Part shown: piece by piece, positions 3,750-48,896 of the stretch
Layout of the letters: every line of letters begins with the position of its first letter
Numbering within the stretch: position 1 is the stretch's first letter
DNA from: Lentisphaerota bacterium
GTDB taxonomy: Bacteria > Verrucomicrobiota > Lentisphaeria > Victivallales > Victivallaceae
Assembly (NCBI GenBank): GCA_024225035.1
Contig: JAAEMX010000211.1
Location: 22,658 to 86,657 of the forward strand
Direction of reading: 5' to 3'
DNA: 64,000 bases
Notes under the pieces: model-generated
Database searches by the model: none
What the model saw: the letters and a program-made list of their open reading frames with translations, nothing else
What the model was told of the DNA's origin: nothing
Position numbers and translations under genes: made by a program

Positions 3750-3786
3750 TACACCAGCTATTTCCGGGTGAGCTTCAGCAAGAAAA

Positions 3787-4907: not shown

Positions 4908-4924
4908 TATTATACCTGTGTGAT

Positions 4925-5161: not shown

Positions 5162-5220
5162 GATACTCTCCCACGTTATTTGGTTTTAAAATATTATGCA
5201 GTTATAAGCTGCATCTAAAA

Positions 5221-12175: not shown

Positions 12176-13020
12176 ATGGTCCCGGCATGAGAGATACTGG
12201 CGGAACCATTGCTGATTTAGTTGCAACTTGTAGTGATGCTGCACGTGAAAGCAGCTTAAAGCGTGTTGTTGATATCGATTTAAAAGAGAGTTTGAAGCCT
12301 GAAAAAATTTATTATAAGAAACTTAGCGAGGGAAAAGTTAATAACGCTTTGGACTCGGTTGGCAAAGTGTCCGTAGAGGATGAATTGAATTGCGGCGGGT
12401 GTGGTTATGGAACCTGCAGAGATTTTGCGAGAGCTATGCTTGAGGGTAAAGCGGAGGCCGCTATGTGCCTGTCATATCTAAGAAAACTGGCTCAGCGTAA
12501 GAGTAATGCTTTAATTAAATATATTCCTGCCGGCGTGGTTATTGCTGACAGAAACTTAAATATCATAGAGTGCAACCAGAATTTTAGTCGACTTTTTGAT
12601 GAAAGCACCAGATTGGCATTTGAGGCTGTGCCGGGATTGAGTGGAGTTAATTTAAAGAAAATTGTTGATTTTTATGATCTTTTTGAGGCTGCATTGGCTT
12701 CCGGGAAAGACGTGTGCCGTGATAATTACCTAAGTGGTGACCACATCCTGAATATCAGTGTTTTTACAATAGAAAAACATCGCACTATAGGAGCAATTGT
12801 TCAGGATGTGACACAGGCGGAAATACATCGTGAACATATTTCAGAAATGGCACAGGAGGTTATCCGCAAAAACGTGAACACTATTCAGAAAATGGCCAAA
12901 TATCTGGGTGAACACATGGCAGATACAGAAATACTGCTGCGTGAAGTCGCCAGCGGATACAAATCTAACACTAAACGCAGGGAGCTTGGCAATGATTTTA
13001 CTGGAAGAGACATTCATTGA
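12142..13020 (+). CDS. sensory [FeFe]-hydrogenase homolog, C-terminal part: H-cluster L3 motif, extra 4-Cys cluster and PAS domain
   Basis: This frame is open from 12142 and encodes KLACEGGCVNG (L3). It continues to CGGCGYGTC-x16-C (a Cx2Cx4Cx16C motif) and a PAS-like fold (IPAGVVIADRNLNIIECNQNF...). Confidence 0.65.
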   Translation, partial: YASLACEGGCVNGPGMRDTGGTIADLVATCSDAARESSLKRVVDIDLKESLKPEKIYYKKLSEGKVNNALDSVGKVSVEDELNCGGCGYGTCRDFARAMLEGKAEAAMCLSYLRKLAQRKSNALIKYIPAGVVIADRNLNIIECNQNFSRLFDESTRLAFEAVPGLSGVNLKKIVDFYDLFEAALASGKDVCRDNYLSGDHILNISVFTIEKHRTIGAIVQDVTQAEIHREHISEMAQEVIRKNVNTIQKMAKYLGEHMADTEILLREVASGYKSNTKRRELGNDFTGRDIH

Positions 13021-14176: not shown

Positions 14177-14195
14177 AGATATACAGGATTTACTC

Positions 14196-14459
14196 ATGAC
14201 CAAGAAAAAAGTAAAGGTAGAGATATGTGTTGGGACAACCTGTTTTCTGCTTGGAGCATCTAAGCTTCAGGAAATGGAAAGGTTTCTTCCGCCGGATCTT
14301 ACCGGTAGAGTTGAAGTGCAGGGCACCGCATGTCTTGGATGCTGCAGAAATGACAACTTTGGCAGCGCTCCGTTCGTCAAGGTTGATGATACTGATGTTA
14401 TTGCTAATGCTACCCTTGAAAAAGTTATAAATAGAGTCAGACGCAGCCTGAACCTCTAA
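14196..14459 (+). CDS. thioredoxin-like [2Fe-2S] ferredoxin (NuoE/HymA-like)
   Basis: 87 aa with CVGTTC ... CLGCC motifs. It sits immediately upstream of the catalytic hydrogenase. Confidence 0.6.
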   Translation: MTKKKVKVEICVGTTCFLLGASKLQEMERFLPPDLTGRVEVQGTACLGCCRNDNFGSAPFVKVDDTDVIANATLEKVINRVRRSLNL

Positions 14460-14467
14460 GGAGATAA

Positions 14468-15919
14468 GTGATGATAATGAAAGTAGCCAATAACGCTGAA
14501 AGAATCAGGCGTGAGCTGCTGATAAGAATAATCCGCAACTTTATGCGTGGAACCCTTAAGGATGTTATTGACCGTATTGCGGTTGATATGCGTCCTCGCA
14601 AGGAAAGGCCTTCACGCTGTTGTGTTTATAAAGACAGAGCCGTTCTTAAATATAGAGTTATGGCAATGCTTGGGTTTGGTATTGAAGATGAAATAGATGA
14701 AGCAAAGGCATTGAGCAAATATCTGAAAGAGGCTACAGAACGACAAGCCCCGGACGATAATATATTGAGTGTATTAGACGTGGCATGTTCAGCATGTGTT
14801 GAAAGTCAGTACTTAGTAACTAATGCATGTCGTGGTTGTTTTGCCCGACCATGTACCTTCAATTGTCCTCGTGATGCAATTCAAGTTGTTGACGGGCAGG
14901 CACGGATTGACCATAGTTTGTGCATTGACTGTGGTAAATGTACAAAAGTCTGCCCATATCATGCAATTATACGAGTGCCAATTCCATGTGAAGAAGCATG
15001 TCCGGTAAACGCTATTAAGAAACGTTCTGACGGAACGCAGGTGATTAACTTTAAAAGCTGCATTTCCTGCGGTAAATGCATGCAGGCGTGTCCTTTTGGA
15101 GCAATTCTGGAGCGTTCCCAGATTATTGATGTACTTAACGCAATTAAAAAAGGTAAAAAAGTCGTGGCAATGGTCGCACCCTCTATTGTCGGTCAGTTTC
15201 CTGGAAAACTCGCGCAGATAGCTGAAGCCGTCAAGCTGGTTGGGTTTGAGCTTATGGAAGAAGTTGCTCATGGAGCTCAAATGACCACTGAGCACGAGAC
15301 TAAAGAGTTTTTTGAACATATGGAGCAGGGAGACCACATTATGACTTCTTCGTGCTGCCCGGCTTATGTTGAGACCGTCAAAAAACATGTACCTCTTTTG
15401 CAGCCATATGTTTCTGATACTCCGAGCCCAATGCGTTTTACTGCCAGAGTCGTTAAAGAGAAATATGGATGTGACTGTGTTAGTGTGTTTATCGGGCCCT
15501 GTGTTGCAAAGCGCAAGGAAGCGCAAAGGTCTCCAAAAGTTGACTACGTATTAACATTTGAAGAACTAGGTTCTTTCTTTGCGGCCATGAATATCGATGT
15601 TGCGTCTCTGAAAGGAATTAAACTTCCGAGAAAAGTAGAAGGTTACGCACGTGGATTTGCCAGTAGTTGCGGGGTGACCTCTGCAATGCTGAAAGAGTCT
15701 ACCAAGACTGTGGCAGACAGCAACTTGGATAATGACGCGAAGTTTATAAACGGACTTGACCAAAAAACAGTTAAACAACTTCATCTTTACGGTAAAGGCA
15801 AACTCCCGGGCAATTTCCTCGAAGTAATGGCTTGCGAAGGAGGCTGTGTTGGAGGTCCTTGCGTGCTGGGTGATGTTAAGCTTGCTACTCGCGCGGTAAA
15901 AGCATCAACGGAAGAATAA
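14468..15919 (+). CDS. [FeFe]-hydrogenase catalytic subunit (monomeric, Fe-S-rich N-terminus; group B-like)
   Basis: All three intact H-cluster motifs are present: TSSCCPAY (L1), GPCVAKRKE (L2) and MACEGGCVGGPC (L3). Two 4Fe-4S ferredoxin motifs and extra N-terminal Cys clusters are also present. Confidence 0.85.
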   Translation: MMIMKVANNAERIRRELLIRIIRNFMRGTLKDVIDRIAVDMRPRKERPSRCCVYKDRAVLKYRVMAMLGFGIEDEIDEAKALSKYLKEATERQAPDDNILSVLDVACSACVESQYLVTNACRGCFARPCTFNCPRDAIQVVDGQARIDHSLCIDCGKCTKVCPYHAIIRVPIPCEEACPVNAIKKRSDGTQVINFKSCISCGKCMQACPFGAILERSQIIDVLNAIKKGKKVVAMVAPSIVGQFPGKLAQIAEAVKLVGFELMEEVAHGAQMTTEHETKEFFEHMEQGDHIMTSSCCPAYVETVKKHVPLLQPYVSDTPSPMRFTARVVKEKYGCDCVSVFIGPCVAKRKEAQRSPKVDYVLTFEELGSFFAAMNIDVASLKGIKLPRKVEGYARGFASSCGVTSAMLKESTKTVADSNLDNDAKFINGLDQKTVKQLHLYGKGKLPGNFLEVMACEGGCVGGPCVLGDVKLATRAVKASTEE

Positions 15920-35515: not shown

Positions 35516-36697
35516 ATGCAGCTTAGAAATTTTAGGCTCATTATTTCAGCAAGCGAGGCTATGAGATATTTTTGTAGAAAATGTCACGAATTCACCGAGA
35601 GAGATCAGGACAAATGTTGCACTAACTGTGGAGCATCCCTGGTAGATGCACCTATGGCTCCCGGAACTGATATAGGTGGTTTTGAAATTATAACGGAAAT
35701 CGGACGCGGAGCAAATGGAGTTGTCTATCTTGCCAAACAACTAACCCTTGAGCGTGATGTCGCATTAAAAGTATTGCCGGAACAGCGTGCTAATGATCCA
35801 GAATTTGTTAAAAACTTCCTGAAGGAAGCCAGAGCCGCGGCAAAACTCAATCACCCTAATATTGTACAGGCATATGATGCAGGAGTGAGCAGCCTTGGAA
35901 CATATTTCTTTGCAATGGAATACATTAGCGGTCGCACTCTGGACGAAAATCTCAAAGAGAATGGCCCACTGAAAGTTGCCCAAGCTATTAATATTGCTTT
36001 GAAGGTGGCTGAAGCACTTGATTATGCCTGGGAGAAACAGCGGTTATTCCACGGTGATATAAAACCAGACAATATTATTATGCGTAATGATGGCGATGTC
36101 AAACTGGCAGACTTGGGGCTTGCTGCAACCATTTTTGAAGAAAAATCAGAAGAAGTAATGGCAACTCCCATGTATGCTCCTCCTGAGGTTATCAGAGGCG
36201 AACATGATAAATTTGGCTGTAAAACTGATATGTACTCTTTTGGCGCAAGTCTTTATGAATTGTTTTCCGGGGAGCCGCCGCACAATGAATATGACTGCGG
36301 TAAAGTGTTGGAAATGCATTTACATGAAGCTCATATGCCATTAAAGGAAAAATTGACTGGGTTTCCGCAAAATGCTTCTGATTTAGTTGATTCTTTACTA
36401 GCTAAAAATCCTGATGAAAGACCCGATAGCTGGAAAGAAGTCATTGAACAATTGCAAGAAATTCAAGAAGCGGGCGCTGAAAAATCAAAGTCAGGTCACA
36501 ACAATTTTAAGAAAATAATCTTTTTTATTTTACCGGCACTGATTATTTTGTCAGGAATAGTTTTTTATTACTTAAAAGAGTCAAAGAAGAATGACGTTCC
36601 GGCTATTATTACAGCCACTTTAGATGAAGAACTGCATGGACAGAAAAGCACAGGTTCTCCAAAAAGTAAAATTTTTGATGTGAACAAAACAGCTTAA
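35516..36697 (+). CDS. Ser/Thr protein kinase with N-terminal Zn-ribbon and C-terminal TM anchor
   Basis: Hanks kinase motifs HGDIKPDNIIM, DLGLA and APPE. N-terminal CRKCHEF..CCTNCG. Single TM helix near the C-terminus. The start codon is ambiguous (35516 or 35561). Confidence 0.8.
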   Translation: MQLRNFRLIISASEAMRYFCRKCHEFTERDQDKCCTNCGASLVDAPMAPGTDIGGFEIITEIGRGANGVVYLAKQLTLERDVALKVLPEQRANDPEFVKNFLKEARAAAKLNHPNIVQAYDAGVSSLGTYFFAMEYISGRTLDENLKENGPLKVAQAINIALKVAEALDYAWEKQRLFHGDIKPDNIIMRNDGDVKLADLGLAATIFEEKSEEVMATPMYAPPEVIRGEHDKFGCKTDMYSFGASLYELFSGEPPHNEYDCGKVLEMHLHEAHMPLKEKLTGFPQNASDLVDSLLAKNPDERPDSWKEVIEQLQEIQEAGAEKSKSGHNNFKKIIFFILPALIILSGIVFYYLKESKKNDVPAIITATLDEELHGQKSTGSPKSKIFDVNKTA

Positions 36698-36701
36698 TCC
36701 C

Positions 36702-39245
36702 GTGTCGACCTCTAAGAATACGTCACCCCCTGTAAAGCGCAGAAGAAGAGGGCTGCCGACGAGTATTAGACGTGACCATGAGAGATTGAATCAAAAACTG
36801 CATGCAGCATTAAACAAGTGCAGCAAAGTACAGTTAAGGCAGTTGGAAAGAGATGTTCTCTCAATGAACAGGACGCTCAAACTCTACAGTCGCAGGTCTT
36901 CAGGAGAAGCAGAAAAAGCTATCGAAGTCATTAACGCATCTCTATTCAAAGTAAAAGAAGGTGTTGCCGAACGTGAAAAGGCAGCAAAAACAATAATTGC
37001 CATTCGGGCAAAAAACGCTGTTGAAAAGAAGCGACTGGATAAATTGCAGAAAGAGGTAAGAAGCGCTCTTAGACAGGCAAAATCTATTTCAGCAAAATCT
37101 ATTTCAGCAAAATATAAAATTCTATTTGCCTTTTCCAGTTTACCCACAGGAAAAAGGACGATCTCAAAGTTTAACTCTATTATAAAAGAAAATGGTAAAA
37201 GGCTTGGGCGTCAAGATAAAAAAATTATTGTCAGAATTGCAGCCTTATTAATAAACAATTACCAGCCGCAAAAAATATTGATAAAATACTTTGGACTTTT
37301 GAAAGATAAACAGCTCCCGTGGAGTATTAATGGCTATCAATATAAAATTATTGAAAATACTCCGAGATACTTCAAGATAAAGACGAAGTATAGCGAAGGA
37401 GCATATGGTATTAAAAAAATAAGTTGGAGCAGAATAACTGATGAGCATCTTTTGATGTTGTGGGATTGGTATATTATTGCATCCAAGGGGGAATTGACCG
37501 AAAGTGAAATTCAAAACGCCTCTCGCTGGCTCTTTACCGAAAAACATTATAAAATGTTAAAAGAATTTGCAGATAAGTATTGTTCAAAAAAGGATAAAGC
37601 ATTTTGGGACTCAATTCTCACCGAAACTGCAGATTCAGGAGTAGAATCCTCAGCTCTGTTATGTGCTGTCAATATTTTCAATGCCTTCAGGGCAGGGAAG
37701 AATGATAGACTTGTTTCACTTTCAGGACAATGGTGTAGAGAATTTACAGAAACTAAAACATATGCCAGGTTTAACAAGGTTATTGATAAAATAATAGCCA
37801 GAGGGAAAATCAGCTCTCCACTGGTCGCTGTTTCTAATGCATTATCAAAAGACCTTAAGCCTATTCAAATATGGGACATAGCCACAAGGTTCCAGCGACT
37901 TAAATGCGTTGACTCTGTAAGTAAAGAAGCTCTTCGAAAAAAATTTATGCTGGCGATGAACCAAATGAAAGGCAATCGAGAATATACTGGTACGTTTGGT
38001 GTATTCAATTATGTTCCAGCCGGAGGAATATACGGCTGGTCAGCTCCGGGAGATTCACAACAGATGTATTCTGCTCCTTTGCTTTATATACCGGCAATGA
38101 TGGATATCGGAGCATGGGCAAACGTTGCTGTCGTAATACTTAGGCGTCCAAATTCTTTAGGAATAAATGCACATTTTGATCAGGAGCTAAGACAGTGGCA
38201 TCCTTATTTTCTCTACAGTGCAGGTTGGGCAGCGTGGCAACTTGATTCTGAAGGCGTTCTAAAAATGTCTCTGGACAGACTCGAAAAGATTTTACGAACC
38301 GGAGGTGGTTTTGATAAAAGTGCGTATGCTTTGGCCGCAAATTTGGCAATGAAGAAGGAAAATCCTGAGCGCGCTATTAAGATTCTTAAACTATATAAAC
38401 CATCACGAAAAGAACATGATTTCCTGTTACCTTTATTCTATCTGAAAGCTTTAATAGCTCAAAATAAAATGAGTGAAAAACAAATTTCCGGATACAATGG
38501 AAAGTTAATTCGGCAGCACGGCAACAGCAAACTGCTTGAAAAAGATATTAAGCTACTTGGCATTTTAAAAAGTATAGTTTCTGGCAAAAAAGTTAATATA
38601 AGGTCAATAACGGCCAGTTTACTTGAAGGCTCATCGTATCCTCGGCTTTGGGGAGAACTGTTAACAGAGGCTGCCGCTAGAGATCTTTTATTGAGGAGAG
38701 ATTCACTTTCCTCTGTGGATTTTATAAAAGTTCTAAAAAAGATAAGTAAAGGGTCTGTCTTTTATGCTGATCTGAACCGCCAAATATTACTATATGAACT
38801 GGGCTCGCAAGAGCTGTATCCAGGCAGGGTACTTAGAATACTGGAGACTTCAATCACTGATTATCGTCCGAGCATGATGCCTCTTTATCCAGATATGGTA
38901 TTGCTGAGATCAGCATTTTACAGTTTGAACAGTAATGCTAAATCTATTGCTCATATTTTAAAATCATATTCTAATTACTGTCCCTTGTTTTCTAACTTTG
39001 AAATGCAGGCTTCTGTTCTAGCAAAAAGTTCTCCTGAAAAGGCATTAGCCTTATTCAAAAACTTAGAACGCAGGCGTCCACCTTCAGGAACTCTCTTGAA
39101 TTTAGGTATTCTTACTGCACTTGTACATTCCGACAGTAAATGCTCACAACAGGTTTTAAATGTTTTAAAGAAGCATGAAACGCAAATGAGCTGGACAGAG
39201 AAATTAATATTAAAGCGCTTTGAAACCTTGCTCAAAGCGCTTTGA
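36702..39245 (+). CDS. large hypothetical alpha-helical protein (847 aa), co-operonic with the Ser/Thr kinase
   Basis: GTG start 5 nt after the kinase stop. Basic N-terminus (KRRRRGLP); contains a KSISAKSISAK repeat; no recognisable catalytic motif. Confidence 0.45.
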   Translation: MSTSKNTSPPVKRRRRGLPTSIRRDHERLNQKLHAALNKCSKVQLRQLERDVLSMNRTLKLYSRRSSGEAEKAIEVINASLFKVKEGVAEREKAAKTIIAIRAKNAVEKKRLDKLQKEVRSALRQAKSISAKSISAKYKILFAFSSLPTGKRTISKFNSIIKENGKRLGRQDKKIIVRIAALLINNYQPQKILIKYFGLLKDKQLPWSINGYQYKIIENTPRYFKIKTKYSEGAYGIKKISWSRITDEHLLMLWDWYIIASKGELTESEIQNASRWLFTEKHYKMLKEFADKYCSKKDKAFWDSILTETADSGVESSALLCAVNIFNAFRAGKNDRLVSLSGQWCREFTETKTYARFNKVIDKIIARGKISSPLVAVSNALSKDLKPIQIWDIATRFQRLKCVDSVSKEALRKKFMLAMNQMKGNREYTGTFGVFNYVPAGGIYGWSAPGDSQQMYSAPLLYIPAMMDIGAWANVAVVILRRPNSLGINAHFDQELRQWHPYFLYSAGWAAWQLDSEGVLKMSLDRLEKILRTGGGFDKSAYALAANLAMKKENPERAIKILKLYKPSRKEHDFLLPLFYLKALIAQNKMSEKQISGYNGKLIRQHGNSKLLEKDIKLLGILKSIVSGKKVNIRSITASLLEGSSYPRLWGELLTEAAARDLLLRRDSLSSVDFIKVLKKISKGSVFYADLNRQILLYELGSQELYPGRVLRILETSITDYRPSMMPLYPDMVLLRSAFYSLNSNAKSIAHILKSYSNYCPLFSNFEMQASVLAKSSPEKALALFKNLERRRPPSGTLLNLGILTALVHSDSKCSQQVLNVLKKHETQMSWTEKLILKRFETLLKAL
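37079..37113 (+). repeat. 15-bp direct tandem repeat (2.3 copies) inside CDS
   Basis: aaaatctatttcagc x2 plus a partial third copy, encoding KSISA-KSISA. Confidence 0.6.
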
Positions 39246-39247
39246 AA

Positions 39248-39781
39248 TTATCTTTGGTAAAGATCATTTCCTTCTGAATCTATAGCGACAATCAAAGGCA
39301 TATTTTCAACTTCAAGTCGATGTATGGCTTCAGGACCGAGATCATCATAACAAACAACCTCACATGACTTAATGCAACGCGCAATTAAGGCAGCAGCACC
39401 GCCTGTTGCAGCAAAATATACACAACCATACTTTTTCATGGTGTCAATCACCTCAGGACTGCGTCCGCCTTTTCCAATCATCGCCCGTAATCCAGTGCTG
39501 GCTATAACAGTTGGAGAATAGGCATCCATGCGATAACTGGTAGTAGGGCCGGCACTGCCAATTGGTTGCCCTGGCTTTGCGGGGCATGGGCCGACAAAAT
39601 ATATTGTCTGACCATTGAGATCTACTGGCAGCTCTTTACCTGCTTCTATAAGGTCACATAAGCGTTTATGAGCAGCATCACGACCAGTGTATATAACGCC
39701 AGAAAGCAAAACTTGATCGCCTGCTTTCAATTTTCTTACGGTATTTTCGTCAAATGGGGTACTTAAACTAACTAAACTCAT
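39248..39781 (-). CDS. class I (Fe-S) fumarate/tartrate hydro-lyase, beta subunit (C-terminal-domain type); mesaconase candidate
   Basis: TtdB/FumA-C motifs (GPCPAKPGQPIGSAGPTTSYRMD, VYFAATGGAAALIA). Last gene of the glutamate mutase operon. Confidence 0.85.
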   Translation of the reverse strand: MSLVSLSTPFDENTVRKLKAGDQVLLSGVIYTGRDAAHKRLCDLIEAGKELPVDLNGQTIYFVGPCPAKPGQPIGSAGPTTSYRMDAYSPTVIASTGLRAMIGKGGRSPEVIDTMKKYGCVYFAATGGAAALIARCIKSCEVVCYDDLGPEAIHRLEVENMPLIVAIDSEGNDLYQR

Positions 39782-39790
39782 TGCGTTTCC

Positions 39791-40696
39791 TCAAATCTCA
39801 AATCCGGCATGCCTTGCTGCATGACAGTTAAGGTTAACGGCTACAGGCAGAGAAGCTATATGACATGGGAATTTCTCTATATGGACAGCCAGAGCCGTAG
39901 TATCACCGCCCAGTCCTTGAGGCCCAACGCCGGAAGCATTGATTTTCTTTAGAATTTCCTGTTCAAGCTCAGCGTATTCTTTTTCATCATGAGGCTGACC
40001 AACTTCTCTAAGCAAAGACTTTTTCGCTAAAAAAGCAGCCTTTTCAAATGTTCCGCCAATTCCTACGCCCACAATTGTAGGCGGACACGGGTTGCCGCCA
40101 GCGCCGGTAACAGTCTGTACAACAAAATCAATTATGCCTTCTTTACCATCTGATGGTTTCAGCATTTTAAGTTGACTCATATTTTCTGAACCACCGCCCT
40201 TAGGAGCTAGTACAACACTAATTTTATCGCCGGGAACGAGTTTCAGATGGATAATTGGCGGAGTATTATCTCCCGTATTCTCACGGTTAAAAATCGGGTC
40301 TTTTACGATTGACTTACGGAGATACCCTTCTTTATAACCTTTACCTGTTCCTTCGGTAATAGCTTCATAAATTGTGCCGCCATCAACTTTCACCAATTCT
40401 CCCATTTCTACAAAGAAAACAGCAAACCCTGTATCTTGACATATAGGCATACGCTCAGTTGAAGCAATTTCCGCATTCTCCAAGTACTGCCGCAAAAATT
40501 CTTTTGCACGCACCGAGTTTTCAGAATTGAGATATTCCTTTAGCTTATTAAGAACATCCTGAGGTAGGTCGTAAGCTGCCTTCATGCAGCAAGCAGCAAC
40601 TTCATTGACAATTCTGTCGTACGGAACATGCCTGAGCATATCCTTGAGGCTTTTATTCTTCGCTATTTTTAAGACTCCCATGACCTGATTCACCAA
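39791..40696 (-). CDS. class I (Fe-S) fumarate/tartrate hydro-lyase, alpha subunit; mesaconase candidate
   Basis: TtdA/FumA-N fold with the CQDTG motif and Cys ligands. Confidence 0.85.
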   Translation of the reverse strand: MVNQVMGVLKIAKNKSLKDMLRHVPYDRIVNEVAACCMKAAYDLPQDVLNKLKEYLNSENSVRAKEFLRQYLENAEIASTERMPICQDTGFAVFFVEMGELVKVDGGTIYEAITEGTGKGYKEGYLRKSIVKDPIFNRENTGDNTPPIIHLKLVPGDKISVVLAPKGGGSENMSQLKMLKPSDGKEGIIDFVVQTVTGAGGNPCPPTIVGVGIGGTFEKAAFLAKKSLLREVGQPHDEKEYAELEQEILKKINASGVGPQGLGGDTTALAVHIEKFPCHIASLPVAVNLNCHAARHAGFEI

Positions 40697-40705
40697 TATA
40701 TTTGT

Positions 40706-41653
40706 TTAAGTTGAGACATTATCCTCTTCGCTATTTTTAGGAGGAAGGGTGCTGAACCCAGTTATTTCTTCCTGACCGGCAAGGCCGACAAGCAGATATT
40801 CTTTGCTGATTGGGTCCATGAAAAACTTCTTAAGCAGCCGGAAGTTCTCTATTTCACCAGTTGATTTGACATGAATACGCTTACCGGTACAATATATTTT
40901 ATCCTTTCGAACTTCAATATAGTTGCCTTCAGCGGCTTTTATCGGAATATCCTGTTTGATCAACTCCTTGATACGGTTTTCAAGTTCGTTAATATCAAAG
41001 TTCGGTTCTTCCGGAAAACCTATTACAAAGCCGTGTTTAACGTCAGAATGCAATTCCGGCAACTTACAATTATAAACATTTTTAAGCAGCCAGCAAGTAA
41101 GGTCCTCGGCACTGTGGGCCATAAGACGGTACTTGGCGTTTTTTTCAATACTGGACTTTATATCCAATGGAGACGGGCCAAACACTGTTGGTCGGAATAC
41201 GCGTAAATCTTCACCAATAGCAAAAATGATCTGCGCATTATAGCCTAAGTGATTATAAATAAGGTCAAAATGCTCAACAACAACTCTTTTTCCTGCTGTG
41301 ATAGCTCGGTTTACTGCTTCAGCAATCTCAAAAAGTTGATGGAAGGCCGATTCGAACCGGATGTCAATATGAAAGGTATGACCTGCAAAATAATCATCTT
41401 CTGAAAAGTCATAAAGCGGAGCGCGACGATTATTTATACCATCATCATCATTAGTCAGCTCAAGGCCTGGGAATAGACCTCTGATAAGGGTAGACTTACC
41501 GGAACCTTCACATCCGATAATTCCGACAAGTCTATCTTCTGCATCCAAATAGCGCTGCGATAAAAAGTGAGCCATTCTGTACAGGCGACGCTTCCCGCGC
41601 GGCGCATGATACTGCGCTGTTATCAAATTGTTTTCCAGCAATCGGCCGGGCAT
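40706..41653 (-). CDS. uncharacterised P-loop NTPase
   Basis: Walker A motif GCEGSGKSTL. No further recognisable family. Embedded between the DUF4387 gene and the fumarase genes. Confidence 0.5.
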   Translation of the reverse strand: MPGRLLENNLITAQYHAPRGKRRLYRMAHFLSQRYLDAEDRLVGIIGCEGSGKSTLIRGLFPGLELTNDDDGINNRRAPLYDFSEDDYFAGHTFHIDIRFESAFHQLFEIAEAVNRAITAGKRVVVEHFDLIYNHLGYNAQIIFAIGEDLRVFRPTVFGPSPLDIKSSIEKNAKYRLMAHSAEDLTCWLLKNVYNCKLPELHSDVKHGFVIGFPEEPNFDINELENRIKELIKQDIPIKAAEGNYIEVRKDKIYCTGKRIHVKSTGEIENFRLLKKFFMDPISKEYLLVGLAGQEEITGFSTLPPKNSEEDNVST

Positions 41654-41655
41654 AT

Positions 41656-41973
41656 TTATACCTCTAGTTCAAGTTTAAGCAATGGCGCGTGCTGTTGAGC
41701 CCCGTAAACGTCAGTGTCACCGGGTGCGCCTGAAGCCACAGGGCGATCCATGACCGCCTTAATAGCTCTTGCAACATCAAAGTAGATAACTTTTTTTACT
41801 TTATCCAACGGAATTCCATAGGCTTCCGCAATGACTTCTTTATTGATGGCATTGGCATCCTTGATAGCTTGGAAGTCAGCTTCATCTTTAATGATGATAT
41901 CCATTGTCAATTCAAAAGGACTGCAGTTCTTGGAACGAATCACCGTTGCCGCGTCAATTAATTTCATTTTCAT
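41656..41973 (-). CDS. DUF4387-like small protein (AtuA C-terminal-domain-like)
   Basis: 105 aa, immediately downstream of the DUF1446 gene, as in split AtuA-like pairs. Confidence 0.5.
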   Translation of the reverse strand: MKMKLIDAATVIRSKNCSPFELTMDIIIKDEADFQAIKDANAINKEVIAEAYGIPLDKVKKVIYFDVARAIKAVMDRPVASGAPGDTDVYGAQQHAPLLKLELEV

Positions 41974-41990
41974 AGCAGGTGCCCCCCTTA

Positions 41991-43352
41991 TTATAGCTCA
42001 TGAATTTCAGTTTTAAACACGTCATTCTCGTCAATCTCCAACAAATGGTAAATAGAGAACTTGTAGACATCTCCAGCGCTGATATCAGATGGAGAGAACG
42101 GGAACGCCAGATTTCCGGCAGTTGCAATGCGCCCGGGATATCCGTAATGCAGCAATGTTGAACGAACAATACTGCAGATAGCATCAGCATCATTCTGGCT
42201 GTCAGCCAGAGTTTCAATCAGTACGCAAACTTCAAGTGATTCCATTTTTTCAGGCTCAAGGTCGGCCATTACGCCATTTTTACCATAAACATGGAAGAAA
42301 ATTTCACCTTTTACACCCTCAGATTCAAGCATGGAAGAGGTGTTTTCTTTGACAGTTTCAAGGATTGAATCAATCTGCCTGATCATAATCGGATCACGAG
42401 TACCGGCTATAGATATTGTTCTGCAGCCGACCTTTTCAGTTCCCTCGAGTTTCACTGTTGGGTTTTCTTCAGGAATGAATTTGGTGCCGGATACTTTAAT
42501 TCTTCCTTCAGGAAGCTCTTCAAATTTAACTTCGCTCAGATCAAGCATTCCACCTGGTCCAGGCAGTAAATATGGGTCTGATTTTTCATATAATGAATGA
42601 GCTGCAGTAGAGTTTTTAGTGAATTCTCTAATTGGATTAAGAGGAACTAATTCAAAATAGTCATCATGCAGAATGCCCATAACACAGTCGCAGCCTGACC
42701 CCGGACTTGCCGCTATAGCTGCGCATTCAAGAATTTTGCCCATGTGCAGAGCCAGAGCCGGATCAAAACCTAACGAAATCGGCTTTGCTGCAAAGGCTGT
42801 AGGATCGTACGCTCTCCCCGCAAGGACGACCTGGCAACCTTGATCAAAGGCATTTTTAATAGGACCAATTCCCATCTGAGCTACGATATTAGTAGCTTTG
42901 TCTACGGTTGCATCGTCAAGCTCTGGTAGTCCGCCTAGGGGTCTGGTTTTACCTGCTTTTATTGCAGTCTTGATTATTTCTTTATCAACATCTGCATAAA
43001 TAACGCCCATAGTGAACGCTAAATTATCTTCTTCTGCAATTTCTTCTGCAATCTCACGACACCAGTCAACATGAGGCTTGGCTCCGCATCCGCCAGCTGA
43101 CCCGATGACGGCAGGAATGTCAAGGTTATATGCAGCTTTCAGGATGTACCTTAAGTCACGTTTTACTCCGTCACGATTGGTAAAGGATTTACCTGAACCA
43201 AGGTAGTACGGGCCTGGGTCAACCGAACCAGCATCGATAGCAATCATATCTGGCTGCATCTCGATTCCGCGATTGAAAGATTCTTCCGGGAATCCATAGC
43301 CTAAGATTCCACTGGGTGAAAGGACTTTGAATTCTGTTTGAGGGATGTTCAT
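41991..43352 (-). CDS. DUF1446 (AtuA-like) family protein
   Basis: 453 aa. N-terminal GILGYGFPEESF and AIDAGSVDPGPYYLG motifs resemble the AtuA/DUF1446 family. The start overlaps the mal stop by 4 nt. Confidence 0.6.
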   Translation of the reverse strand: MNIPQTEFKVLSPSGILGYGFPEESFNRGIEMQPDMIAIDAGSVDPGPYYLGSGKSFTNRDGVKRDLRYILKAAYNLDIPAVIGSAGGCGAKPHVDWCREIAEEIAEEDNLAFTMGVIYADVDKEIIKTAIKAGKTRPLGGLPELDDATVDKATNIVAQMGIGPIKNAFDQGCQVVLAGRAYDPTAFAAKPISLGFDPALALHMGKILECAAIAASPGSGCDCVMGILHDDYFELVPLNPIREFTKNSTAAHSLYEKSDPYLLPGPGGMLDLSEVKFEELPEGRIKVSGTKFIPEENPTVKLEGTEKVGCRTISIAGTRDPIMIRQIDSILETVKENTSSMLESEGVKGEIFFHVYGKNGVMADLEPEKMESLEVCVLIETLADSQNDADAICSIVRSTLLHYGYPGRIATAGNLAFPFSPSDISAGDVYKFSIYHLLEIDENDVFKTEIHEL

Positions 43353-44602
43353 TCTTCTTCTCCGTATTTTGAGCGAAGCAGCGCAATGGAACGCTGCATT
43401 TCATTATTGGTGATCATGTAGCCTTCGTCAAAACCCATTCCCGGCTTGGCGAGAATGCGGGCAGGGCGGGTTGCCAGCGCCGCCTGGGTACAGCATCTGG
43501 CAGAAACGTCAGTTTCGTTACAAGTGCCGCCTTGATAAGCTTCCATGTCGTTTCTCTGACAGTAAAGAACAGCCTTGACAGTATTGTGAATGCTGCCAAG
43601 ATCCGGGGTTTTTATCTGAACCATATGGCAGCACTTAGTATCAGTGAAGTCAACAATGTCCTCATAAGTGTTGCACCATTCATCAGCGACAATCTTAGTA
43701 GCCGCTCCCATACGTTCCATTTCTTCTTTGATTTTACCGAGCATTTCGATTTGAGGTTCTTTGGCTTCCATGTCAACAGGACCTTCAATATATAAAGGCA
43801 GGCCTTTTGTCAATTTGCCAAGGTCAGTCAGGTATTGAGCAATTTTTACAGGATCATTATCAAAAATCGGTCCCAGGTTGCCATATACATCAATATGGAT
43901 AGCAGGACGGTAATCCCCGTCAGGGCCTAATTCGAAAATTCTATTAGTCAGCCATTCAATATATTCAGCAAGCTTTTCGCCGTTGAGCCCAAGCTTGGTT
44001 TCTATATGATTGATAAGTGCGTGTGGCAACACATCAACACCCTTAATAATCATTTTATCTGAAGCATTGTAGCGATCGTCACCACTCTGACCAAAAATTG
44101 GAATTTTTTCAGCTATTACAGGCAGTGAAAACTCTTCGCACAACACTTCGCACATTAATTTGCCTTCGCTTTTGGCCTTAGCGTCAAGCAAAGCCTGACT
44201 CAAACCATAGCGTAAAGCTGTATGTAATGGTTTTCCATCAATCTTCAGCTGATCAATATAAGCAGCAGTTTCGCGGAAACTGTCGATACTCAAGCCTAGT
44301 AAAATAGGACTGATATGTTCTTCCATGAAAGGAATATAAGTTTCAGCAAGGAGCAAGGGATCACGGCCGCCAGCTCCACTGTACTGTACAGCAGCAGCAT
44401 CGCCAACGCCTACCTGACCATTTTCCATTTCAAGCATGATTGAGATTGACTCTCCTGACTGCCTGATAGCGGTAAAGCCTTCTGTTACCGGATCACCTAC
44501 ATAGGTAAATCCATCATGGCCTGCGCCCTGTTTGATTGCACGTTGATCATCGAAGAAAAAACCGGTTTTACCTGCAGAATATGTTATATTTTTTATTTTC
44601 AT
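43349..44602 (-). CDS. mal: methylaspartate ammonia-lyase (beta-methylaspartase)
   Basis: N-terminus MKIKNITYSAGKTGFFFDDQRAIKQGAGHDGFTY closely matches the MAL N-terminus; enolase-superfamily length (417 aa). Confidence 0.9.
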   Translation of the reverse strand: MKIKNITYSAGKTGFFFDDQRAIKQGAGHDGFTYVGDPVTEGFTAIRQSGESISIMLEMENGQVGVGDAAAVQYSGAGGRDPLLLAETYIPFMEEHISPILLGLSIDSFRETAAYIDQLKIDGKPLHTALRYGLSQALLDAKAKSEGKLMCEVLCEEFSLPVIAEKIPIFGQSGDDRYNASDKMIIKGVDVLPHALINHIETKLGLNGEKLAEYIEWLTNRIFELGPDGDYRPAIHIDVYGNLGPIFDNDPVKIAQYLTDLGKLTKGLPLYIEGPVDMEAKEPQIEMLGKIKEEMERMGAATKIVADEWCNTYEDIVDFTDTKCCHMVQIKTPDLGSIHNTVKAVLYCQRNDMEAYQGGTCNETDVSARCCTQAALATRPARILAKPGMGFDEGYMITNNEMQRSIALLRSKYGEEE

Positions 44603-46044
44603 CGTGGCCTCCCGACTAGTCTGCCTTTACTTATTGAATAAATATCATCAATTACCATTTGAAAACTTGCTTCACGTTTTTCAATGTCTGCTCTTTTCTG
44701 GATCAATTCTTTATGAATTTTTCGGATATCTTCAGGAATTGGAACTTTGCCGAAATCCAAAATACGAATTGCTCCATGATTGTCGCGAACCGGCATCATT
44801 TTGCCTGGGTTGGCAAGAGAAGGAGCAAATGGGATATCTATAACTCCGGCCTGAAATGCTCTTACAGCTCCCTCTGCAATATTACCGTTTCCAAGCTGTA
44901 AAGTAGCATCCATCAAAGCACGAGTTTCACGTTTAATAAGTTCAACTTCCCAGAGCATCTGTTTGGTTTCAGGAACTTCCTGATCAGCCAGCATGTTAAC
45001 AATCTGCCGAGTGCATTTCAGCCCTTCGAGATTGGCTTCTTTGGTAGGAATACCAAATGCTTCATGCGGAGTTTTTACGATAACTTTTGTCGCTTTTGCA
45101 AGTGCCGCAGCAGTTCCGCCCCAGGTTATCACAGAAAATGCTTTAGCCTGGTCTTCAGGGAAACCTCCCATCCATTGATGCAGAACAGTACTTAACTCGT
45201 AATCATTGTATCCAGCTTTCTGGAAATATTCATCTGCTAATTCACGCAAGGCCATCATAGCAGCGATATCCTGAATCATATTGCCGGCCTGACCATAACC
45301 GAGAGTGATCGACCTTACTCCCTGTTCAAGTGCCATTAGACCTTCCAGTATAGCAACTGTATGGCTGGCAAACGGCGGCACCAGAGTGCCGGAAAGAGGG
45401 CCAAAAGGTTCACGGTTTATTCTTACGCCTTGCTCCTCAAAATATCCAACGAGTCGGTCAATGTACTGCCAGCAGGAAATGGAATGCTCCAAAGTAACTT
45501 TTTTAGCATAAGGAATATTATAAGAGATACCGCCCCCCTCATATGAGGTAAAGCCGGCTGCAAATGAAATTTCCGCCAGCAAACGTGCATCTGGAGTTCC
45601 ATGTCTGATTTCTACAGGTTTACTAAGGCTTTCGACTAATCGACGGCATTCTGCTATGCCGTGGTTAACAGCAGGGAATCCATTTAATAAAGATTGGCCT
45701 GCAGCCTTTGACTTTTCGATGCCGCGTTGAGCTTCGTTATATTGATTGAGTCGTGTGTATGCGTCGATAGTTGTGGGGAGCAGGTCGCATTCAGGCTCTA
45801 GAAATTTCAGCAATTGAATATGCTCTTCAACCAATGCTACTCCTGCACGAGGTTGTAAGAGAACCTGTTTGGCCTGGTCCGCTTCATGCATCTTTTTCGC
45901 AAAGTTCATACTGTCGGGTAAGCCGCGCTGGTATTGAACCGCGTCTTCGAGGTCAACGTCCTGACCTGTCGGCCAGGTTTGCAAAGCGCCTTCGCGCATT
46001 TGCATGAATTCGCTTTCGGGAATTTTCCCTTGGTAAAGCTTCAT
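44599..46044 (-). CDS. glmE: glutamate mutase (methylaspartate mutase) E/epsilon subunit
   Basis: 481 aa TIM-barrel subunit with a characteristic N-terminus, in operon order S-L-E-mal. Confidence 0.9.
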   Translation of the reverse strand: MKLYQGKIPESEFMQMREGALQTWPTGQDVDLEDAVQYQRGLPDSMNFAKKMHEADQAKQVLLQPRAGVALVEEHIQLLKFLEPECDLLPTTIDAYTRLNQYNEAQRGIEKSKAAGQSLLNGFPAVNHGIAECRRLVESLSKPVEIRHGTPDARLLAEISFAAGFTSYEGGGISYNIPYAKKVTLEHSISCWQYIDRLVGYFEEQGVRINREPFGPLSGTLVPPFASHTVAILEGLMALEQGVRSITLGYGQAGNMIQDIAAMMALRELADEYFQKAGYNDYELSTVLHQWMGGFPEDQAKAFSVITWGGTAAALAKATKVIVKTPHEAFGIPTKEANLEGLKCTRQIVNMLADQEVPETKQMLWEVELIKRETRALMDATLQLGNGNIAEGAVRAFQAGVIDIPFAPSLANPGKMMPVRDNHGAIRILDFGKVPIPEDIRKIHKELIQKRADIEKREASFQMVIDDIYSISKGRLVGRPR

Positions 46045-47435
46045 TTTGATATCTCCCTCAAGGCAATTTTGTTTAAAGCTGTAGCTGCTGCGGCTTTTGG
46101 AGCTATACGAGCTGTATTAGCTAAAAGCGGCAGCAAATATTCATGGTCAGCGAAGAACTCAGGGTTTTCCGGTAACAGTATCTCCTCTTCCGGATTAACA
46201 GATGTGGCACCTGCAAAAGTATCCTTCAGAATTTCATTACCAGCCTGAGCAAGAAAACCGCCGGTTCCGATTATAGTCTGGATCCGCTGCAGGTTTTTTC
46301 CTGTTTGAACAGAAGTCGGCCCTACAATTGTGTAAACGGTTCTTCTTCGCCCGGAGTGTCTGACTGCCGCAGTTCTCAAACAGACAGCTGCAAGCAGTTT
46401 TTCCAGTTTTTTTTCAGTGTCATTTTTGGGCAGGTATGAAGGCTCTTCTTTAAATTTAAAAAGAAAAGCATCCAGTTCATCTCTGCTAAGTGAGTTTTCC
46501 TCCAGCTTAAATTCTACAAATCTTGCATCTGACGCAATTGCAGCATCGGCACAAATACGCATCCCAACGTCACCTTCTACCGTACGTTTTATATCCGGTT
46601 CAGGAAGACCTCTGGTTATTACGCTATCCGAATCAAGCTCACGCCTGGTACGAGAATAAAAATCTGTCGTTGCACCACCCATATCGATAATACAAAACTC
46701 GCGTGGTGATTTAGAGTAATCAGCCAGCACTTTGACAAATTCAAGCATGGAGTAGGGGGTCGGTACTGGAGTTTGTCCAGTACGCTCCATTAATTCATCA
46801 AGCCCTTTACCGGTGACAATCTGCTTGAGAAATATTTCTCTTATTTTTGATTGTGCCGGTACTGGATTGGGACAGTTAAGCTCCGGCAGTACATTTTCAA
46901 TTATGTGCAATTGATGCTTAGCAAGCAACTCTCTGGCTTGCTTATGCAGACTGCGGTTAGCTGCAAATATGATCGGGATATTCTTGGAAATATCTTTTAT
47001 CATATGCAGATTATGCCCGACAATTATCTCATTGCCGCCGTCAGTTCCGCCGGTAAAAAGAATAATATCAGGACGTTGATTATTAATGAGAGTTATATCT
47101 TCGTCTGTAAGTTTGTAGGCAAAAACAGATTGGATTTTGCCGCCTGCGGAACAGGCGGCCTCCTTTGCCATTTTAAGCGTTAGTTCCGGCACAACACCAA
47201 TAGCTGCTATAGCCAGGCCGCCTTTGGCAGAAGAAGAATAAACCAAACTGCAGTTTCCCGGTATCTCTTCACTGCCGAACAGATCAAGACAACACGAAGA
47301 AAAGCCATCAGCAAGATGACTTGTTGTTGTCGGAACGCAGGTTCTGCTTATAAGTTCAAGGCTTTCATCATAATATCTGAATAAAGCCCCTTTCGTAAAA
47401 GTGGAACCAATATCAATACTGACTATTTTGTCCAT
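46041..47435 (-). CDS. glmL: glutamate mutase accessory/chaperone protein GlmL (MutL)
   Basis: ASKHA-fold N-terminus MDKIVSIDIGSTFTKGALF; located between the S and E subunits. Confidence 0.8.
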   Translation of the reverse strand: MDKIVSIDIGSTFTKGALFRYYDESLELISRTCVPTTTSHLADGFSSCCLDLFGSEEIPGNCSLVYSSSAKGGLAIAAIGVVPELTLKMAKEAACSAGGKIQSVFAYKLTDEDITLINNQRPDIILFTGGTDGGNEIIVGHNLHMIKDISKNIPIIFAANRSLHKQARELLAKHQLHIIENVLPELNCPNPVPAQSKIREIFLKQIVTGKGLDELMERTGQTPVPTPYSMLEFVKVLADYSKSPREFCIIDMGGATTDFYSRTRRELDSDSVITRGLPEPDIKRTVEGDVGMRICADAAIASDARFVEFKLEENSLSRDELDAFLFKFKEEPSYLPKNDTEKKLEKLLAAVCLRTAAVRHSGRRRTVYTIVGPTSVQTGKNLQRIQTIIGTGGFLAQAGNEILKDTFAGATSVNPEEEILLPENPEFFADHEYLLPLLANTARIAPKAAAATALNKIALREISK

Positions 47436-47859
47436 CTTCAGCCCTGCGACCCAAAATATCTTGTTTCAGAAAATTTATACAATCTTCAAGAGGGGTATCC
47501 GGAGTAAAAACTCTGTCATATCCCATACTCTTGAACTTAGTTACAATTTCTTCGTTTGGAGTTTTTCCGACAACCAGGTTGCCGCCGACATATAGAATTA
47601 CGTTTTCAAGGCCGCGTTCGACACAGCGTTCGCGAAAACCCTGGCAGTCTATTTCGCCATGCCCGTAAAGGGAGGAGACTATAATTGCTTCTGCCCCGGT
47701 TTCTATTGCAGCATCTATGTATTCATCTTGACTTACCATTACGCCAAGGTTCACAACATTGAATCCTGCTTCGCTGAAAACTCTTTCGAGAATTTTATTT
47801 CCAACAGCGTGACAGTCAGCACCTATCACACCCAAAACCATGGTTGCATGTTCCATCAT
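47413..47859 (-). CDS. glmS: glutamate mutase S/sigma subunit (B12-binding)
   Basis: B12-binding DxHxxG motif (GADCHAVGNKIL) in a 148-aa protein. Confidence 0.85.
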   Translation of the reverse strand: MMEHATMVLGVIGADCHAVGNKILERVFSEAGFNVVNLGVMVSQDEYIDAAIETGAEAIIVSSLYGHGEIDCQGFRERCVERGLENVILYVGGNLVVGKTPNEEIVTKFKSMGYDRVFTPDTPLEDCINFLKQDILGRRAEDGQNSQY

Positions 47860-47885
47860 TCAAACCCGTTACAGTGTAACGCTCC

Positions 47886-48896
47886 TTAACGTTTTTCCAT
47901 TAGTTCTGAAATCTTTTCCTCAATCCTGATCAAAGCCGTTCTTTCCAATTGGTATTCGAAACGAATTATTATCCCACCACGCTGAAGGAAGTCACTGAAT
48001 GCATTACTGCAGACTTTGTCTTCTTCCAATGTGCACTTGGGAGGCGTAATCAGAACTGTCTTGTTTTCCAAAAAGGCATTAATATTTTCAGGAGAACTTT
48101 CTGGAAGCCATGGTTTATTTTTCAGGCTTATATGAAATTCCCCGAGTTTATTTTTAATAATATTATAGAAATTCTCGCTTTGAGAAATAATCCCTATATT
48201 GTTGTTCCTCGGGATGGTTGCCAGGTCAATTATTGTCTGCTGGCTGGGAGTTACTACAGCTTGAATTAAGCGATCTTTACACTCAGACAAAACACCACTG
48301 ATCTCCGGATAATGAGTTGTGGTTGTAAGAATAAGATCAAAATTTCTCAGTTGTTTACAAGTTCTGGGTTTTGATAGTTTATTGAGCAGAAACTTATGGA
48401 GGCGAACATTCGCCAAATGTTGCAGTTGTGACTCAAATATTGAAAGAGCTTCAGGATTACAGTCAACTCCGGCAATATGGAAATTTTCCAGTCTGCGCTG
48501 TCTGTCCATAAGTAGAAGCTGCAGCATGGTGCTGATTTCCTGATGAGTGAAATTTAGCTTTTCGAGAGATTCTATACTTTGATTAAGCAGCTTAACAGCT
48601 GTTTCTTTACGGCTGACCGGAACAACATCCTGCTGCGAGGATACAAAAGTTCCTCTGCCATGCACGATTTGAATAACATGATTAACGGCCAGGCGTTCAT
48701 ACGCTTTTTTTACGGTGCCTCGTGCTGTCCCGATTTCCTGAGCAAGTTCACGTTCAGGAGGTAGTTTATCTCCTGCTTTCAGCTGACCACTTTGGATCTG
48801 CTGTGTCACGCGCTCAATAATCTGACGATATACTGGCATATCTGAGTTTTTGTCAATCGTAATGCGCATTGTTTTCCTTATCTTTTTTGATAGCAA
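47886..48896 (-). CDS. GntR-family transcriptional regulator with C-terminal ligand-binding domain
   Basis: N-terminal winged HTH (PVYRQIIERVTQQIQSGQLKAGDKLPPERELAQEIGTARGTVKKAY); directly upstream of the glm operon. Confidence 0.7.
   Translation of the reverse strand: MLSKKIRKTMRITIDKNSDMPVYRQIIERVTQQIQSGQLKAGDKLPPERELAQEIGTARGTVKKAYERLAVNHVIQIVHGRGTFVSSQQDVVPVSRKETAVKLLNQSIESLEKLNFTHQEISTMLQLLLMDRQRRLENFHIAGVDCNPEALSIFESQLQHLANVRLHKFLLNKLSKPRTCKQLRNFDLILTTTTHYPEISGVLSECKDRLIQAVVTPSQQTIIDLATIPRNNNIGIISQSENFYNIIKNKLGEFHISLKNKPWLPESSPENINAFLENKTVLITPPKCTLEEDKVCSNAFSDFLQRGGIIIRFEYQLERTALIRIEEKISELMEKR

Follow-up and report, generated by a model that had tools for sequence, protein, structure and literature searches.

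Gene content and layout of the cluster

The window, by which we mean the whole 64,000-nucleotide stretch of DNA analysed, which derives from a Lentisphaerae MAG, contains ten minus-strand open reading frames (ORFs) at 39248-48896. The ORF list and profile HMMs confirmed this set, with all coordinates as first listed, and the HMM check upheld the gene calls of the original prediction. At the head of the cluster is a GntR-family transcriptional regulator (47886..48869; Pfam GntR HTH, 70 bits). Its start is probably the ATG at 48869, which gives 327 aa and equals the NCBI call, while the ORF list reaches a TTG at 48896. A C-terminal YmtS_Ross domain (PF27163) is recorded for the identical NCBI product, and 37 related loci likewise have a homologous regulator upstream that is read in the same direction.

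The regulator is followed by the genes of glutamate (methylaspartate) mutase. The B12-binding small subunit encoded by glmS (47413..47859; NF002612, 224 bits, cut-off 110; TIGR01501, 213 bits) and the catalytic subunit encoded by glmE (44599..46044; TIGR01503, 734 bits, cut-off 390) both scored above equivalog cut-offs. Between them lies glmL (mutL; 46041..47435), which encodes the glutamate mutase accessory or reactivase protein (Pfam MutL, 400 bits; TIGR01319, 421 bits, cut-off 204); against the stricter equivalog NF040745 it reached 442 bits, just under the cut-off of 475. Next is mal (43349..44602), encoding methylaspartate ammonia-lyase (MAL; TIGR01502, 535 bits, cut-off 286, plus MAAL_N and MAAL_C). 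These profiles support the earlier assignment to the methylaspartate route, and judged by sequence families this is a methylaspartate-route glutamate operon. Downstream of mal lie genes for a DUF1446 protein, a DUF4387 protein, a P-loop protein and two fumarase subunits.

The genes had been described as tightly coupled, with 4-nt ATGA overlaps or gaps under 20 nt. Three such overlaps are real (glmL/glmE, glmE/mal and mal/DUF1446), and gaps of 17 nt, 2 nt and 9 nt separate the DUF1446 and DUF4387 genes, the DUF4387 and P-loop genes, and the two fumarase genes, respectively. However, glmS and glmL overlap by 23 nt rather than 4, and 26 nt lie between the regulator and glmS. The spacing between the P-loop gene and the fumarase alpha gene is 9 nt if the latter starts at a TTG (40696) and 66 nt if it starts at ATG 40639, the start favoured by the family profiles and the NCBI call. 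Scans for promoters and terminators gave counts no higher than expected from shuffled sequence. The sole element retained was a terminator-like hairpin 3' of the last operon gene (39210..39245), which has a 13-14 bp, G+C-containing stem and may serve both strands, the operon and a convergent plus-strand gene; its identification is a consensus match.

Candidate mesaconase and citramalate lyase genes

The last two genes encode the alpha (39791..40639, minus strand; 282 aa from the ATG) and beta (39248..39781, minus strand) subunits of a class I Fe-S fumarase. The alpha subunit matched Pfam Fumerase with 386 bits and NF004885 with 405 bits (cut-off 276), and the beta subunit matched Fumerase_C with 213 bits and NF005310 with 272 bits (cut-off 238). 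Neither reached the tartrate dehydratase models (TtdA, 180 bits against a cut-off of 365; TtdB, 120 bits against 264), so that by profile HMM the pair is a two-subunit class I fumarase distinct from tartrate dehydratase. Of 63 related loci centred on the P-loop gene, 51 likewise have a class I fumarase downstream of it. Class I fumarases are broadly promiscuous, and that of the E. coli cluster prefers mesaconate (Kronen & Berg 2015, PMC4682846). We agree with the original prediction that the alpha and beta proteins are a mesaconase candidate (MesA and MesB), a substrate specificity that we infer from their family.

It had also been proposed that the operon lacks a citramalate lyase. A CitDEF-type enzyme is indeed missing from what was searched: no CitE (HpcH_HpaI), CitF or CoA-transferase was found in the 64-kb window among ORFs of at least 150 aa or NCBI genes at 29.8-52.8 kb, and no CitD among NCBI's called genes for the same 29.8-52.8 kb. 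A lyase is nevertheless present. Using phmmer, we found that the DUF1446 protein (cmlA; 41991..43352, minus strand) matches the chain deposited as "Citramalate lyase, subunit A (cmlA)" in PDB 9ERQ/9EVF with E = 2.5e-164, the alignment to 9erq_A spanning residues 7-445 of 453. Over its full length it is 57-58% identical to both the crystallised CmlA and the orthologue from E. coli; the latter (58% identical) is encoded directly downstream of mal. The DUF4387 protein (cmlB; 41656..41973, minus strand) matches 9erq_B, "Citramalate lyase, subunit B (cmlB)", over residues 1-104 (E = 1.7e-27), scores 119 bits against the DUF4387 model and shares 42% identity with the protein encoded next to cmlA in E. 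coli. By sequence similarity, the pair is the orthologue of CmlAB, the large and small subunits of citramalate lyase. In a metagenome scan for cmlA loci, in which an alignment query gave loci and a single CmlA protein query gave none, cmlB followed cmlA in all 68 loci.

These matches change how the step is to be viewed. The DUF1446, DUF4387 and P-loop genes had been singled out as an uncharacterised trio at the position of the citramalate step; the first two would supply that step as CmlAB, but the P-loop gene is not part of the lyase unit (see below). The suggestion that the step is novel is outdated, because the two-subunit enzyme has already been crystallised and named (PDB 9ERQ/9EVF). In 2015, Kronen & Berg (PMC4682846) remarked on a DUF1446 gene following mal and left the fate of citramalate open. 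A 2026 preprint used the two-subunit CmlAB of R. planticola for direct cleavage of citramalate to pyruvate and acetate, and reported that R. planticola cmlAB alone supports mesaconate-dependent growth of E. coli and labelling of acetyl-CoA. The probable function of CmlAB is taken from the names given by the PDB depositors and from one preprint; our literature search returned no primary CmlAB paper and nothing linking AtuA with citramalate.

It is conceivable that the DUF1446/DUF4387 pair is instead an AtuA-family paralogue acting on another substrate, and that another part of the genome encodes a CitDEF-type or citramalyl-CoA lyase for citramalate. AtuA is a broad family, the Pfam AtuA/DUF1446 model gave CmlA only 67 bits, cmlAB-like pairs also occur without glm or mal, and our view of the genome is limited to 64 kb. 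We nonetheless consider this highly improbable given the full-length identity to crystallised CmlA and its E. coli orthologue, the invariable position of cmlA right after mal with a 4-nt overlap, and the window's lack of CitE, CitF and CoA-transferase genes noted above. In addition, operons with a CitE-like lyase (L081, and L009 as far as its contig reaches) are without cmlAB, as would be predicted if the two lyases were alternatives for a single step. Current Pfam and NCBIfam models give the CmlA and CmlB families no function, so the final step of the pathway will continue to escape genome annotation.

A conserved P-loop protein that accompanies the pathway

The remaining gene (40706..41653, minus strand) encodes an uncharacterised 315-aa protein with the Walker A motif GCEGSGKST, a mildly acidic pI of ~6 and no match to any Pfam or NCBIfam family. 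If the trio had been absent from the glm operons of relatives, its presence here would have been incidental; we looked for such absence and found the trio conserved, with glmE-mal-cmlA-cmlB upstream of the P-loop gene in 51 of 56 loci anchored on that gene, from many phyla, so its occurrence in this operon is not incidental. Only the gene families of the operon were conserved across these loci. The P-loop gene is also retained where a module of CoA-ligase and CitE-like lyase replaces cmlAB. In L012, L022 and L029 it comes immediately after mal; in L081 it is found between glmL and glmE. It occurs in 18 of 20 non-enterobacterial loci with glm, mal and cmlAB, as opposed to 1 of 10 cmlAB loci without glm and mal. 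Because it is kept across lyase modules and is scarce in cmlAB loci without glm and mal, the gene is not part of the lyase; it goes with the pathway whichever lyase module is present.

Structure prediction divided the protein into a TsaE-like P-loop ATPase domain (residues ~1-160) and a domain with the fold of the AlaX/ThrRS-N2 editing domains (residues ~165-295). The predicted likeness to TsaE is in fold only: hhalign against E. coli TsaE gave 18% probability, confined to the Walker A region, and comparisons of the family with TsaE, ThrRS N2 and PDB chains yielded only Walker A matches or non-significant alignments. In the second domain, the invariant residues H180-S-A-E-D184 and C255-x5-H261 lie where editing motifs would be expected, in an alignment made by eye and without statistical support. 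There, AHSAED falls opposite RHSCAH of ThrRS, and C255-x5-H261-V-x8-F-R-L-L-K opposite C182-x3-H186-V-x8-F-K-L-M-K. Judged from these models, the gene is built from two tRNA-enzyme folds. It appears to be undescribed so far.

The protein is most likely an ATP-dependent accessory or damage-control factor connected with glutamate mutase, MAL or their intermediate 3-methylaspartate. In one form of this, which we put forward tentatively, it would act as an ATPase that helps glutamate mutase or MAL with assembly, reactivation or the loading of cofactor. GlmL is an actin-fold ATPase, and the TsaE-like domain might dock on its partner much as TsaE does on the actin-fold TsaB-TsaD pair. The fold and matching motifs are consistent with such a role, as is the fact that the gene tracks the pathway and not the lyase type, both in the gene orders of L012, L022, L029 and L081 and in the 18 of 20 versus 1 of 10 distribution described above; cmlAB also works in E. 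coli without the P-loop protein. On the other hand, enterobacterial clusters have GlmS, GlmL, GlmE and MAL yet lack the gene, five operons that carry it have no glmL between glmS and glmE (L018, L037, L052, L055 and L074), and two loci (L032 and L094) combine it with cmlAB and have no glm or mal within the available flank. The median identity of the protein, 58%, is far above the 41% of the known chaperone GlmL, and the editing-like domain is left unexplained.

That domain could be accounted for if the protein were an ATPase-coupled, AlaX-like deacylase that hydrolyses tRNA or adenylate mischarged with 3-methylaspartate and so protects translation during operation of the pathway. 3-Methylaspartate, a non-protein amino acid made by glutamate mutase, is similar to both aspartate and glutamate. 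Both halves of the protein come from tRNA-related enzyme families, its invariant residues fall where editing motifs would align by eye, NCBI names it 'alanine-tRNA synthetase second additional domain-containing', and its degree of conservation is that of a catalytic enzyme. We regard this as unlikely, however. The second His of HxxxH is replaced by Asp and the Cys-His spacing differs, no significant sequence-profile link to ThrRS or AlaX was found, and the pI of the protein is on the mildly acidic side. The trans-editing factors known so far work without an ATPase, Enterobacteria handle the same intermediate without the protein, and none of the top-ranked literature matches was a paper joining methylaspartate with tRNA synthetases or editing. 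Were it true, translation quality control would lie inside a catabolic operon and be co-inherited across more than 10 phyla.

Two further candidates were rejected. The 314-aa hypothetical protein encoded upstream of glmS in E. coli showed no similarity to the P-loop protein and is not its analogue. Nor does the P-loop protein appear to stand in for the adenosyltransferase CobO: CobO occurs only in a single enterobacterial lineage, which leaves the complementarity of the two genes confounded by phylogeny, one locus (L141) has both side by side, and CobA-type structures were not among the fold matches.

The proposed pathway and its relation to known systems

Taken together, we propose, with a probability of about 85%, that the locus is a complete methylaspartate operon with a CmlAB lyase and a P-loop companion. 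With the GntR-type regulator at its head, it would provide an anaerobic Lentisphaerae bacterium with the whole methylaspartate route of glutamate catabolism. Adenosylcobalamin-dependent GlmS/GlmE, kept active by GlmL, would convert L-glutamate to (2S,3S)-3-methylaspartate, from which MAL would release ammonia to give mesaconate. The two-subunit fumarase would then hydrate mesaconate to (S)-citramalate, and CmlAB would cleave this to pyruvate and acetate, needing neither CoA nor an acyl-carrier subunit. Flux would presumably run in this direction, with pyruvate, acetate and ammonia as end products and the ATPase/editing-like protein as a conserved companion of the pathway.

Operons of this CmlAB type extend well beyond enterobacteria. 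We found it in Lentisphaerota, Spirochaetota, Planctomycetota, Acidobacteriota/Aminicenantes, Riflebacteria, Elusimicrobia and others, as a conserved nine- or ten-gene unit that outside enterobacteria nearly always carries the extra, highly conserved P-loop gene. The reason why most anaerobes would need this ATPase for a B12-dependent amino-acid fermentation might turn out to be an accessory or quality-control function of a new kind. The operon is open to testing because a cultured relative, Lentisphaerota strain zth2 (L003), carries the same ten genes.

Compared with its nearest structural counterparts, the P-loop protein stands apart. TsaE (YjeE), the ATPase of t6A tRNA modification, would be expected with tsaB/tsaD, whereas the P-loop gene sits in a catabolic operon, and its product has a second domain fused and no significant profile match to TsaE. 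Relative to the AlaX/ThrRS N2 trans-editing domains, to which its likeness is predicted from fold, the motifs differ, reading HxxxD and Cx5H, an ATPase is fused, and there is no match to Pfam tRNA_SAD.

The closest known cluster is that of E. coli O157:H7 and its relatives (PMC4682846), taken together with the Raoultella-type CmlAB citramalate lyase (PDB 9ERQ/9EVF). It has the same order, glmS-glmL-glmE-mal-cmlA-cmlB, also includes a class I fumarase, and turns glutamate into pyruvate, acetate and ammonia by the same chemistry. Its fumarase is the single-chain FumD, whereas the two-subunit type encoded here is 29-37% identical to it. Further genes of the E. coli cluster encode a dicarboxylate/amino-acid symporter, CobO and a LysR regulator, and it has neither the GntR regulator nor the TsaE/AlaX-like gene of the present operon. 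The order mal-cmlA-cmlB is shared by about 1,100 E. coli genomes, the glmE-mal segment being present in 1,127 of 5,426. E. coli could not be brought to express or use its own cluster (Kronen & Berg 2015, PMC4682846), so physiological proof is thin even in the model organism. The clostridial pathway of C. tetanomorphum and C. tetani (glmSLE, mal, mesAB, citDEF and citCXG; PMC4682846) has in common with this operon glutamate mutase, MAL and an Fe-S mesaconase from the class I fumarase family, heterodimeric in both and here a candidate. Clostridia cleave citramalate with an acyl-carrier-dependent CitDEF-type lyase and its activation genes, none of which was found in the window in the searches described above, whereas CmlAB would take that place here. 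Overall, the operon encodes a known pathway in a variant that is widespread and has one uncharacterised component.

Gene content and spacing of the operon

The interval 39248-48896 is filled by ten ORFs, all on the minus strand. The original prediction of a ten-gene glutamate operon was borne out, with the ORFs present and their families identified by Pfam and NCBIfam: a GntR regulator, GlmS (224 bits against a cut-off of 110), GlmL (TIGR01319, 421 bits), GlmE (734 bits), methylaspartate ammonia-lyase (MAL; 535 bits), an AtuA/DUF1446 protein, a DUF4387 protein and two fumarase subunits, both of which scored above the fumarase equivalog cut-offs and below those for tartrate dehydratase. The 315-aa Walker A protein encoded at 40706-41653 (minus strand), hereafter the P-loop protein, matched no family in either database. 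The tight coupling first described holds for the close spacing overall, but the exact overlaps and gaps differ: true ATGA overlaps occur at three junctions (glmL/glmE, glmE/mal and mal/DUF1446), the glmS/glmL overlap is 23 nt, and five other intergenic gaps measure 2, 9, 9, 17 and 26 nt. With its ATG start at 40639, which is backed by the profiles and by NCBI's call, fumarase alpha is preceded by a gap of 66 nt.

A strong hairpin lies directly 3' of the last gene. Convergent with the operon, and sharing its terminator hairpin, are genes for a Ser/Thr protein kinase and then an ~800-aa protein without a Pfam match (35516-39245, plus strand). Elsewhere in the window, genes for a putative Fe-S protein and a SpoIIE-type phosphatase lie between two large-subunit genes of the Fe-only-hydrogenase-like type (11285-15919, plus strand); the arrangement resembles a sensory hydrogenase module, which would fit an anaerobic lifestyle. 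Two neighbouring genes at 3021-5691 (minus strand), each encoding a MinD/CbiA-type P-loop domain fused to 4Fe-4S ferredoxin domains, adjoin a DUF134 gene.

Citramalate lyase and the proposed pathway

Using a sequence search against solved structures, we found that residues 7-445 of the DUF1446 protein match chain A of PDB 9ERQ/9EVF, "Citramalate lyase, subunit A (cmlA)" (E = 2.5e-164), and that chain B, "Citramalate lyase, subunit B (cmlB)", is matched by the DUF4387 protein (E = 1.7e-27). The citramalate lyase originally thought to be missing is therefore encoded in the operon, as CmlAB; this enzyme already has a solved structure and a name, and it accounts for the apparently lyase-less operon with its mystery step. 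Placing an uncharacterised trio at the citramalate step was right in position for two members of the trio, whose enzyme was already known. As originally noted, citEF-like lyase genes are absent; no CitE, CitF or CoA-transferase genes were found in the entire 64-kb window. A preprint reports that growth of E. coli on mesaconate depends on cmlAB and that label passes into acetyl-CoA. Our literature search found no primary paper on CmlAB, so its function is taken from the PDB names and this preprint.

The gene identities and orthology are shown, and their best-supported reading is a complete methylaspartate route, for which we infer fumarase specificity, flux direction and regulation. Glutamate would be converted to 3-methylaspartate by GlmS/E, with GlmL, and then by MAL to mesaconate and ammonia; the two-subunit class I fumarase would form (S)-citramalate, which CmlAB would cleave to pyruvate and acetate. 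The cluster would be controlled by the GntR regulator.

The P-loop protein and its genomic linkage

Relatives of the P-loop protein without a precomputed Pfam domain number at least 3,336, and NCBI labels some of them 'alanine-tRNA synthetase second additional domain-containing'. In an alignment of 16 diverse members, mean column identity was 67%, with ~90 invariant positions. Median identity across loci was 58% for the P-loop protein, compared with 62% for GlmE, 60% for MAL, 58% for CmlA and 41% for GlmL, which puts the protein on a par with the catalytic enzymes in conservation. Its AlphaFold2 model (pLDDT 80.7, pTM 0.74) has two domains, and the nine best Foldseek matches were TsaE and AlaX structures (E = 6e-6 to 8e-5). 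Aligned by eye, in our own reading, the family motifs GCEGSGKSTLIRGL, APLYDF, FHIDIRF and VVVEH pair with GDLGAGKTTFSRGF, SPTYTL, YHFDLYRL and CLVEW of E. coli TsaE, and AHSAED and YCTGKRIHV-x8-FRLLK with RHSCAH and MCRGPHV-x8-FKLMK of ThrRS. Profile comparisons of the family with TsaE and ThrRS were not significant. The modelled fold would suit a damage-control deacylase for 3-methylaspartate misloaded on tRNA or adenylate; however, the motifs are altered, an ATPase domain is present and we found no literature on such 3-methylaspartate mischarging, and we regard this role as unlikely.

Scanning one genome per species yielded 547 relatives, of whose loci the best 80 were analysed; these came from Lentisphaerota, Spirochaetota, Planctomycetota, Acidobacteriota/Aminicenantes, Riflebacteria/Ozemobacteraceae, Elusimicrobia, Latescibacterota, Holophagae and others. 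Where at least 6.5 kb of upstream sequence was available, glmE, mal, cmlA and cmlB lay upstream on the same strand in 51/56 loci. The cmlAB pair was upstream in 65 of 71 loci and a class I fumarase downstream in 51 of 63. Clustering of all ORFs revealed only the operon's own families as conserved, among them the GntR-type regulator in 37 loci and a fumarase that was single-chain in 33 loci and two-subunit in 12-13. The operon of the cultured Lentisphaerota strain zth2 consists of the same ten genes (enzyme identities 78-95%). A bacterial-type glmS-to-P-loop operon (59-69% identity) also occurs on contig JAIWHJ010000054.1, binned as 'Promethearchaeota archaeon', reflecting either binning contamination or gene transfer.

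In the converse scan of metagenomes, anchored on cmlA, cmlB followed cmlA in 68/68 loci. Among loci with adequate flanks, the P-loop gene was present in 18/20 non-enterobacterial glm+mal+cmlAB loci, 0/14 of the enterobacterial type and only 1/10 cmlAB loci without glm/mal. Loci with cmlAB pairs but without glutamate mutase or MAL include L103, L156 and L157, and also L114, L118, L139, L144, L145 and L149. Some of these pairs have just a class I fumarase beside them, pointing to a mesaconate/citramalate utilisation module; others lie in unrelated contexts.

Three operons (L012, L022, L029) lack cmlAB and carry the P-loop gene directly after mal. In locus L081 the order is glmS-glmL-Ploop-glmE-mal, and after mal come genes for two CoA ligase subunits, one SucC-like and one SucD-like, and for a CitE-like HpcH/HpaI lyase; in L009 the same module is directly upstream of the P-loop gene. 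In both (L081:13945-17365; L009:8-3365) the module replaces cmlAB and the P-loop gene is kept. The SucC-like subunit contains ATP-grasp_2 and Citrate_bind domains, and the module points to an ATP-dependent citramalyl-CoA route as a third means of completing the pathway. Given this locus linkage, including the cmlAB-less operons that keep it, the P-loop gene goes with the pathway rather than with the lyase, which fits cmlAB working alone in E. coli.

One possible, though doubtful, role for the P-loop protein is to serve glutamate mutase or MAL as an ATP-dependent accessory factor: enterobacteria do without the gene, glmL is absent from some operons that carry it, and in L032 and L094 it stands beside cmlAB with glm/mal not nearby. 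Another role, such as sensor or regulator, ranks third, after the accessory factor and the deacylase. Substitution for a CobO-type adenosyltransferase was not supported. In one locus (L141:3720-5179), the only one seen with both genes, the gene directly after the P-loop gene encodes a CobO-like adenosyltransferase with 32% identity to E. coli CobO.

Comparison with the E. coli cluster

The E. coli cluster has the order glmS-glmL-glmE-mal-AtuA-DUF4387-symporter-class I fumarase-cobO, its AtuA and DUF4387 proteins being 58% and 42% identical to those encoded in the window. Of 5,426 complete E. coli genomes, 1,127 contained the glmE-mal segment. Two hypothetical proteins of 314 and 140 aa are encoded immediately upstream of E. 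coli glmS (L002:4966-6413); the 314-aa protein, considered as a P-loop relative, is unrelated in sequence. Kronen & Berg (PMC4682846) characterised FumD as the mesaconase of the glm-mal cluster in E. coli O157:H7, and the CmlAB assignment now fills what had remained open in 2015. What is new is the extra TsaE/AlaX-like gene, which in many phyla is tightly co-inherited with the pathway and of which we found no description; it would be of greater interest only if its function proves unusual. The operon itself represents a known system in a widespread variant form.
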